The notes under the pieces: model-generated
Seen by the model: only the letters and a program-made list of their open reading frames with translations
Databases searched by the model: none
Told to the model about the DNA's origin: nothing
Shown here: positions 14,841-15,079 of the stretch, one piece after another
Position numbering within the stretch: the first letter of the stretch is position 1
How the letters are laid out: every line of letters begins with the position of its first letter
Translations under genes and position numbers: made by a program
Source of the DNA: Bacillota bacterium
GTDB taxonomy: Bacteria > Vulcanimicrobiota > SpSt-956 > JAKJGF01
Direction: 5' to 3'
DNA length: 30,842 bases
Assembly (NCBI GenBank): GCA_022704525.1
Contig: JAKJGF010000033.1
Location: forward strand, 1-30,842

Positions 14841-15079
14841 GTGAGACGTGAGACGTGAGACGTGAGACGTGAGACGTGAGACGTGAGACGTGAGACGTGA
14901 GACGTGAGACGTAATGTATTTAATTACATGTACTTCACGCTTCACGCTTCACGCTTTACGCTTCACGCTTCACGCTTTACGCTTTACGCTTCACGCTTCA
15001 CGCTTTACGCTTTACGCTTCACACTTCACGCTTCACACTTCACGCTTCACACTTCACGCTTCACGCTTTACGCTTTAAT
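14841..15079. repeat. Heptanucleotide tandem arrays forming a giant interrupted palindrome: (GTGAGAC)x10, 22-nt spacer, (CTTCACG/CTTTACG/CTTCACA)x21
   Basis: Left arm 14841-14910: 10 perfect GTGAGAC units. The spacer 14911-14932 contains an ATGTA...TACAT mini-palindrome. Right arm 14933-15079: 21 units (12 CTTCACG, 6 CTTTACG, 3 CTTCACA, last one degenerate). The S51-like gene's TAA stop is inside the last unit. The plus ORF 14904..15116 is only the translation of this array. Confidence 0.9.

Follow-up and report, generated by a model that had tools for sequence, protein, structure and literature searches.

What is an interrupted, imperfect palindrome of about 235 bp, built of 7-nt tandem repeats, doing between two genes that are read in the same direction? 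The element in question starts at position 14,841 of a 30,842-nucleotide stretch of DNA from a Bacillota bacterium (GTDB lineage Vulcanimicrobiota; SpSt-956; JAKJGF01), contig JAKJGF010000033.1 of GenBank assembly GCA_022704525.1. This whole stretch is called the window here, all coordinates are window positions unless another contig is named, and both genes flanking the arrays are encoded on the minus strand. We find that the element consists of two facing heptanucleotide arrays whose RNA is predicted to fold into a long hairpin ending against a U-tract, and we hold it to be an even call that this hairpin acts as intrinsic (Rho-independent) terminator and 3′-end structure of the upstream gene, insulating the promoter of the downstream one. 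It represents a new and extreme case within a class of bacterial repeats that is known but has been little studied.

Tandem Repeats Finder (TRF) resolves a perfect GTGAGAC array at 14841–14912 (period 7, 10.3 copies, 100% matches) and a CTTCACG-unit array at 14933–15075 (period 7, 20.4 copies, 90% matches), both of them heptanucleotide simple-sequence repeats with their 7-nt copies set head to tail. An initial annotation of this DNA had described an interrupted palindrome of heptamers, which these arrays bear out. Its 22-nt spacer with a mini-palindrome ATGTA..TACAT is confirmed as to the palindrome, but measures 20 nt by TRF boundaries, 22 nt being reached only with a partial unit. In the order of transcription the locus is laid out as follows:

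15075–16055, minus strand: upstream gene, an open reading frame (ORF) of 326 amino acids (aa), called with 309 aa in other assemblies, weakly Peptidase_S51/PepE-like
14933–15077, minus strand (sense): 5′ arm of the RNA hairpin, 20.3 GTGAAGC-type units
14913–14932, no strand assigned: spacer or loop, AATGTATTTAATTACATGTA, with the small palindrome inside
14841–14912, minus strand (sense): 3′ arm of the RNA hairpin, perfect (GTCTCAC)x10, reading GTGAGAC on the plus strand
14831–14840, minus strand: U-tract, CTTTTTATTT, directly 3′ of the 3′ arm and overlapping the −35 hexamer
14805–14833, minus strand: sigma-70-type promoter match, TTTACA-17 nt-TGcTATAAT, 11/12 plus an extended −10
14116–14790, minus strand: downstream gene, 224 aa from the first ATG

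The 5′ arm, read on the minus strand, is made of 11 AGCGTGA, 6 AGCGTAA and 3 AGTGTGA units, and it carries a 14- and 28-nt higher-order periodicity. On either strand, each 7 nt of the paired arm consensus sequences give five Watson–Crick pairs, one G-U pair and one mismatch, exactly the register of six pairs that had been proposed from inspection. The GTGAGAC array of the plus strand and the GTGAAGC array of the minus strand, 20 nt apart, have G-rich units that converge and thus form a convergent pair; neither unit holds a G run longer than one, and G3–4 tracts for a G-quadruplex are absent. A 70-aa plus-strand ORF across the CTTCACG array (14904–15116) is an artefact; heptamer arrays in TCAC orientation leave all three frames open, and those in GTGA orientation carry TGA in all three.

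Folded as RNA, the minus strand reaches −103.2 kcal/mol (z −5.4) and the plus strand −91.6 kcal/mol (z −3.9), with 0 of 100 dinucleotide shuffles as good in either case, so the long bulged hairpin suspected on either transcript is upheld on both strands. A palindrome of ~235 bp could also extrude as a DNA cruciform and affect local supercoiling or replication, as the initial annotation had considered for extrusion. With DNA parameters, however, the fold of −35.1 kcal/mol does not stand out from shuffles (−32.8 ± 3.3 kcal/mol, z −0.69, 47 of 200 as good), Watson–Crick pairing is available at only five of seven positions, and the arms are unequal with 10 versus 20 units. Since the RNA folds beat their shuffles and the DNA fold does not, the RNA hairpin is supported and the cruciform was set aside as unsupported; we regard it as highly improbable. 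A search of Rfam 15 at gathering score returned no match across the whole window.

The two ends of the hairpin coincide with gene boundaries. The TAA stop codon of the upstream gene (15077–15075, minus strand) falls inside the first sense-strand heptamer unit, which, together with the tandem minus-strand flanking genes, is a position typical of the convergent pairs described by Rehm et al. 2015 (PMC4692102). At the other end, CUUUUUAUUU provides a U-tract, overlooked in the initial annotation, that follows directly on the sense-strand 3′ arm and gives the element the look of an intrinsic terminator; the stem ends 2 nt (CC) before the Us. The promoter match at 14833–14805 (minus strand) is the best within the 14 kb scanned; its −35 begins 8 nt past the end of the perfect array, and as the match lies 3′ of the hairpin, read-through transcripts from the upstream gene would include the hairpin. 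Along the minus strand the order is TAA, ~20 GTGAAGC-type units, loop, 10 GTCTCAC units, CTTTTTATTT, promoter match, AGGAGA and ATG, with AGGAGA standing ahead of the ATG at 14769 that opens a 217-aa version of the downstream gene, the one called in most assemblies. The start in the upstream stop codon and the end beside the downstream −35 had been recognized before, but the names S51-like and Tae4-like then given to the two genes were not confirmed. The upstream product scores below the cut-off against Pfam Peptidase_S51 (E 0.011) and at E 0.016–0.021 against PepE structures in a solved-structure sequence search, and the downstream protein has no significant match in Pfam or in the solved-structure sequence search. 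Exact look-up found no record of the 326-aa upstream protein (15075–16055), nor of the protein encoded at 28252–29631. The 5′ extension that the 326-aa ORF has over the shorter version contains (GACGTGA)x2 (16035–16048). Other assemblies start the gene at an ATG near 16004 (309 aa); the GTG at 16055 has thus probably been called too far upstream, in which case these heptamers would be intergenic.

The same locus was recovered from many assemblies by exact-protein look-ups, and six of them span both arms with identical flanks: two from JGI, two from ENA, one from NCBI (GCA_002069435.1) and the window itself. Counted in short-read assemblies rather than in reads, and possibly imprecise for that reason, the GTCTCAC arm has 10 units in the window, 11 in L125 (GCA_002069435.1), 14 in L124, 15 in both L127 and L001, and 22 in L002, where three variant units interrupt it. 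The GTGAAGC-type arm has 20.3 units, or 18.3 in L124 and L127 after a 14-nt loss. Around the arms, DNA of up to 20.7 kb in at least 12 assemblies is ~99.95% identical or better outside a few indels. L001 and the window, for example, differ over 20.7 kb by three single-nucleotide polymorphisms (SNPs), a 1-nt indel, a 3-nt indel and a 35-nt heptamer indel, and the short heptamer arrays are invariant among the assemblies compared. Close relatives thus differ by whole units at this element: the variability in arm length that had been anticipated appears across six assemblies (10–22 units in the GTCTCAC arm, 18 or 20 in its partner), and the comparison among relatives suggested at the time finds a locus that is not invariant.

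Collapsed or misjoined repeats would offer a trivial explanation for such differences. At least nine short-read contigs terminate inside the perfect arm, which shows an assembly problem and probably reflects within-sample heterogeneity as well, and de Bruijn unit counts can err when an array nears the k-mer length. Yet the perfect runs that were spanned measure 70–105 nt, below the usual largest k-mers (127–141), which makes the assembled unit counts plausible, the 22-unit allele is broken up by its three variant units, and both arms are crossed in six assemblies with the same flanks. An artefact of assembly is therefore scarcely credible to us. As the arrays break short-read assemblies of this genome, contig ends of metagenome-assembled genomes (MAGs) at these arrays are biologically meaningless.

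The comparison of assemblies yielded further differences away from the element. The only other recurrent one is a 3-nt (TAA) indel at 10500, by which a vault-protein-like gene has 826 aa in the window and 827 aa in most other assemblies. The three SNPs that separate the window from L001, the only substitutions in 20.7 kb, sit at 22645–22651 within a 1238-aa ORF, spaced exactly 3 nt apart. At 17091 (7666 in L001) a 1-nt deletion in this JGI contig breaks up a SAM hydroxide adenosyltransferase gene, which has 294 aa in the window, so that short fragments are called instead; either a frameshift variant or a mistake of the assembly may be the cause. L125 (NCBI) is without at least 45 nt at 17664, inside an 85-aa ORF (17607–17864) upstream of a PemK-family toxin gene (17248–17610). 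A second length-variable repeat in the genome lies in the 5′ part of a peptidyl-prolyl isomerase gene (19359–19486 of L144), where a 42-nt in-frame tandem repeat is present in three versus two copies and the protein has 271 versus 257 aa in the comparison of L144 with L145.

How could such a hairpin work, and what would a change in arm length do to it? We suggest that RNA polymerase on the minus strand would first make ~20 GUGAAGC-type units from the stop codon onward, then the small loop hairpin and then 10 GUCUCAC units, which would zip onto the first arm as 6-pair helices with single mismatches between them. The transcript would be released at the U run in CUUUUUAUUU, 2 nt (CC) past the stem end, where the U-tract overlaps the −35 of the near-consensus promoter. 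For the alleles of 10, 11, 14, 15 and 15 units, the last GUCUCAC is paired and UUUUUAUUU unpaired at minimum energy, so that five of the six alleles run from stem end through CC into unpaired UUUUUAUUU, the arrangement of a terminator stem with a U-tract at 0–2 nt. The perfect arm may gain and lose 7-nt units by slipped-strand mispairing, and the imperfect arm may shift in 14-nt steps. As the 5′ arm is in excess, its surplus would hold the stem base beside the U-tract for 10 to 15 units, and variation in arm length is hence probably close to neutral, not a switch. The element resembles intrinsic terminators in its stem-loop, in the U-rich tract directly after it and in its position just past a stop codon. 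It departs from them in that ~70 or more paired positions are divided among 6-bp helices with a break every 7 nt, the 20-nt loop is itself structured, and the 5′ arm has a large surplus that is unpaired or folds on itself; the ordinary terminators of the window have GC stems of 9–13 bp.

The element is not alone. GTGANNNGTGA occurs 44 times in the window versus 0.57 expected, and although the element is the largest locus, 25 of the 44 occurrences lie outside it, at 11 loci. Nearly all heptamer arrays of the window, whose GC content is 35.7%, follow the pattern GTGA-NNN (GTGAGAC, GTGAAGC, GTGAGAG, GTGAAAA, GTGAGAT, GTGAGAA, GTGATGC and GTGAGCA). With at least 11 other GTGA-NNN loci in the window, the same architecture elsewhere and a precedent in Xanthomonas, the impression of the initial annotation that there was nothing like it cannot be maintained. 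As a rule, an array starts at the stop codon of the preceding gene or includes it (8106, 12612, 12713, 15075, 19615, and 19795 in L144), and facing arms occur at four window loci (828–880, 12610–12726, 14841–15075 and 25125–25218), whose spacers and units share only the GTGA/TCAC heptamer core. The other arrays of note are these:

25125–25218, minus strand: small copy of the main architecture, with stop, (GTGAGCA)x5 plus GTGAAAA units, spacer, (GTCTCAC-type)x3 and a T-rich tail
12610–12726, no strand assigned: facing GTGA/TCAC arrays between convergent genes, both stop codons lying in heptamer units
828–880, no strand assigned: (GTGANNN)x5 followed by (NNNTCAC)x2, with a perfect 13-bp stem GAGAGGTGAAGAG/CTCTTCACCTCTC, just past a stop codon at 823–825
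8083–8108, minus strand: lepA–hemN spacer filled with sense-orientation GTGA-type heptamers, the lepA TGA stop being part of a unit
19605–19624, plus strand: GTGAGAG/GTGAGAC array that includes the stop codon of a transglutaminase-like gene
20506–20534, plus strand: GTGAGAG x2 plus GTGAAAA x2 array, intergenic, upstream of the gene at 19644–20444 (minus strand)

For the terminator reading speak the replica at 25125–25218, the location of facing-array hairpins at gene 3′ ends, and a contig of a MAG labelled Vulcanimicrobiota with 36% GC (L030), in which 24 GTGA units, a loop, 2 TCAC units and TTTTT are followed by a Shine–Dalgarno sequence and ATG. Several observations weigh against it. The stem is weak per unit, with an extra mismatch (GUAAAGC) in 7 of ~20 units, the centroid structure retains only the three loop-proximal units, and the 22-unit allele is an exception in that its last unit is unpaired in the minimum-energy fold. 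A simple terminator scan did not report the element, whose loop and stem are beyond the limits of the scan. No U-tract is found at 828–880, at 12610–12726 or at high-GC heptamer hairpins elsewhere, and arrays without an inverted partner exist in the window (8083–8108) and in L144 (19711–19797). Given hairpins without a U-tract and arrays without a partner, it would be too simple to regard the whole heptamer family as terminators. The L144 array comprises 13 sense-orientation units (GTGAGAC, ATGAGAC, GTAAGAC) with neither inverted arm nor U-tract; it extends from the TGA stop of a DZR-domain gene to ~60 nt short of the next start codon.

Near-identical strains that differ in unit number, and a perfect array that stops 8 nt short of a −35, also bring to mind a contingency (phase-variable) regulator, in which the number of units would tune activity of the downstream promoter or read-through into the gene. 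Heptamers do serve in contingency systems, the TTTTGAT heptads of Vibrio cholerae ctxAB being an example. Another parallel concerns hmw1A of Haemophilus influenzae, where a heptamer repeat, (ATCTTTC)n, was found experimentally to be the left arm of a long regulatory RNA hairpin cut by RNase III, with expression depending on the length of the repeat (PMC12721329). As in hmw1A, a heptamer repeat forms a hairpin arm (10 repeats), repeat number varies in the population and a promoter is adjacent. The hmw1A hairpin, however, is located in the 5′ untranslated region (UTR) of the regulated gene and has a G-rich, non-repeat right arm, whereas in the present element both arms are repeats, and the hairpin precedes the predicted promoter and runs into a U-tract; if this promoter is used, the array is not part of the downstream 5′ UTR. 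Moreover, the repeat lies neither within an ORF nor between −35 and −10, and steps of 7 nt alter neither promoter geometry nor reading frame. As the arrays are upstream of the −35 and changes in unit number leave promoter spacing intact, a classical on/off phase switch at the promoter is unlikely. Similar arrays also occupy about a dozen unrelated housekeeping junctions such as lepA–hemN, a pattern unlike that of contingency loci. All in all, we think a contingency function improbable.

The nearest relatives of the element are the GGGAATC arrays of Xanthomonas, described together with the heptameric GGGGAYT arrays of Nostoc by Rehm et al. 2015 (PMC4692102). The Xanthomonas arrays have 2 to 26 units, are intergenic and spread genome-wide, and differ in length between species; they favour the coding strand at up to 50 bp from a stop codon or overlapping it, are under-represented between divergent ORFs, and include 70–75 convergent-orientation pairs able to form stem-loops (PMC4692102). 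The 7-nt unit, the genome-wide intergenic arrays, the association with stop codons, the length variation and the convergent pairing all recur in our case. Differences lie in the unit, as GGGAATC can form G-quadruplexes and GTGA-NNN, without a G-tract, cannot, and in the host, an Eremiobacterota-type digester bacterium of 36% GC. The present pair is furthermore longer and more asymmetric (10–22 versus 18–20 units), combines two different heptamers and is followed by a U-tract and a promoter. TAACTGA direct repeats in marine Beggiatoaceae, cyanobacteria and some Bacteroidetes form a second relative (MacGregor 2015, PMC4679880). They reach 43 copies and cause assembly breaks, but mostly occur as sets of 2–6 copies directly upstream of start codons, with one indirect repeat reported (PMC4679880). 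Shared with them are abundant intergenic heptamers, one favoured sequence family per genome and stop codons in the forward orientation; unlike TAACTGA repeats, the present arrays start at stop codons, often as facing pairs. Repetitive extragenic palindromic (REP) sequences and bacterial interspersed mosaic elements (BIME) are likewise intergenic, located at gene 3′ ends, hairpin-forming and dispersed in many copies. The present elements, in contrast, are built of short tandem units of variable number, and none of the four hairpin loci of the window contains a conserved palindromic unit, of 20–40 nt in REP/BIME, or its GTAG head. Literature searches on GTGAGAC and on the assembly accession found nothing relevant.

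Are facing heptamer arrays, then, a peculiarity of this genome? A scan for (GTGAGAC)x3 in 185,579 species-representative genomes yielded at least 119 loci in many named lineages across many phyla, at 33–70% GC. Among the matches listed and the window, neighbouring arrays of opposite orientation always run GTGA array first and TCAC array second, 31 to 0. The facing-array hairpins among the matches listed lie between convergent genes in 9 cases, tandem genes in 11 and divergent genes in one; their outer units often include stop codons, and variant units are often mirrored between the two arms. This breadth at first sight fits a GTGAGAC-specific element conserved across phyla, an idea that was dropped after scanning viral contigs for triplicate control heptamers of matched composition: GAGGTCA occurs at 48 loci, GGCAGTA at 56 and GACGGAT at 7, compared with 2 for GTGAGAC. 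With controls as common or commoner, GTGAGAC has no special standing; arrays of heptamers are common whatever their sequence. GTGA is nevertheless the most enriched 4-mer in independent heptamer arrays of the matches listed (21 of 90 versus ~5 expected), while the majority of arrays in the listed (GTGAGAC)x3 loci have sequences other than GTGA.

What the different heptamers have in common is polarity. With a uniform detector and among the matches listed, the G-rich arm precedes its partner in 63 of 63 GGCAGTA pairs, 8 of 8 GAGGTCA pairs and 24 of 25 GTGAGAC pairs, 95 to 1 when pooled, and these pairs share a layout of stop codon, hairpin, Shine–Dalgarno sequence and start codon. Some contigs hold several facing pairs per 5–10 kb (viral contigs L149–L252 and genome contigs L005–L123). 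Stop codons, present as TGA in all three frames of GTGA arrays, were considered as a general cause of the polarity and rejected, since GAGGTCA is polar 8 to 0 without stops in its G-rich orientation.

These scans bear on the simplest alternative, namely that the arrays are functionless by-products of slippage which expand where selection allows, in intergenic DNA, with facing arms arising from template switching from one arm to the other and with hairpin and U-tract incidental or relics of an overgrown ordinary terminator. According to Mrazek 2007, as cited in PMC4679880, heptanucleotides rank first in abundance among long simple repeats in most of the genomes rich in them, and were attributed to slippage. 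The abundance of the control heptamers in viral contigs agrees with this, as do the freely varying unit number and the poor upkeep of arm pairing, in which 7 of 20 units carry an extra mismatch. A metagenome scan found only one homologue of the downstream protein (L004), distant at 47% identity and from another organism; its 6.2-kb contig is free of heptamer arrays throughout. Undirected slippage, on the other hand, would hardly yield the 95-to-1 polarity among the matches listed or the depletion between divergent genes, nor would it account for the precise coincidence of stem end, U-tract and promoter at this locus, and the mirrored order of variant units in arms of other genomes suggests that pairing matters. 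We rate the by-product explanation as unlikely, though likelier than the other alternatives.

A strict converging polarity would also be expected from an oriented binding protein, and the GTGA core common to all window arrays, followed by three variable bases, could be the contact of a DNA- or RNA-binding protein that reads one heptad per subunit. Binding with such a period exists: the ribbon-helix-helix omega repressor of pSM19035 reportedly binds WATCACW heptads in direct or converging orientation, and HutP and CspB bind RNA with a 7-nt periodicity. PMC4679880 also mentions that CspB binds heptamer repeats. The polarity, however, is also seen with unrelated heptamers (GGCAGTA, GAGGTCA) in unrelated contigs, which disfavours a single sequence-specific factor; operator arrays do not usually vary freely in unit number, and no candidate protein was identified. 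Arrays of binding sites are thus a quite improbable explanation.

The window holds some further features of note. The vault-protein-like gene (10134–12614), a bacterial gene with a major-vault-protein shoulder (MVP_shoulder, E 1.7e−29) and repeat domains, has its stop codon inside a heptamer array. A 243-nt tandem repeat (5865–6653, 3.2 copies, 79% matches) lies inside a 362-aa ORF (5592–6680, plus strand), whose product is made of 81-residue repeats with only faint Pfam matches. At 24388–24439, just upstream of the 1238-aa ORF (20627–24343, minus strand), a 26-nt sequence within an AT-rich region is perfectly duplicated in direct orientation (CAGGTAATATATTTCTTTATATTAAT x2).

Returning to the terminator reading, we tentatively extend it beyond this locus: facing arrays with the G/purine-rich arm invariably at the 5′ side, whichever strand is read, may constitute a distinct, widespread and self-expanding class of terminators or insulators in bacteria and phages, many of them without U-tracts, a generalization that we ourselves consider doubtful. 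If it were true, the 95-to-1 polarity would reflect a mechanistic requirement. One possible reason is the weaker RNA:DNA hybrid of a pyrimidine-rich 3′ arm, which would ease completion of the hairpin; another candidate is slippage driven by transcription and dependent on a G-rich non-template strand. Under the generalization, arm length would act as a fast-evolving tuner of read-through.

Heptanucleotide repeats are reported to be the commonest long simple repeats in many bacteria, and their function is still open (PMC4692102, PMC4679880). The locus described here is a natural experiment on this question, as it places a very long facing pair at a defined junction of stop codon, U-tract and promoter, in at least five alleles of 10 to 22 units, within an otherwise clonal, widely sampled and uncultured digester bacterium. 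These natural alleles represent ready-made material for studying termination by such hairpins and the roles of arm length and arm order.

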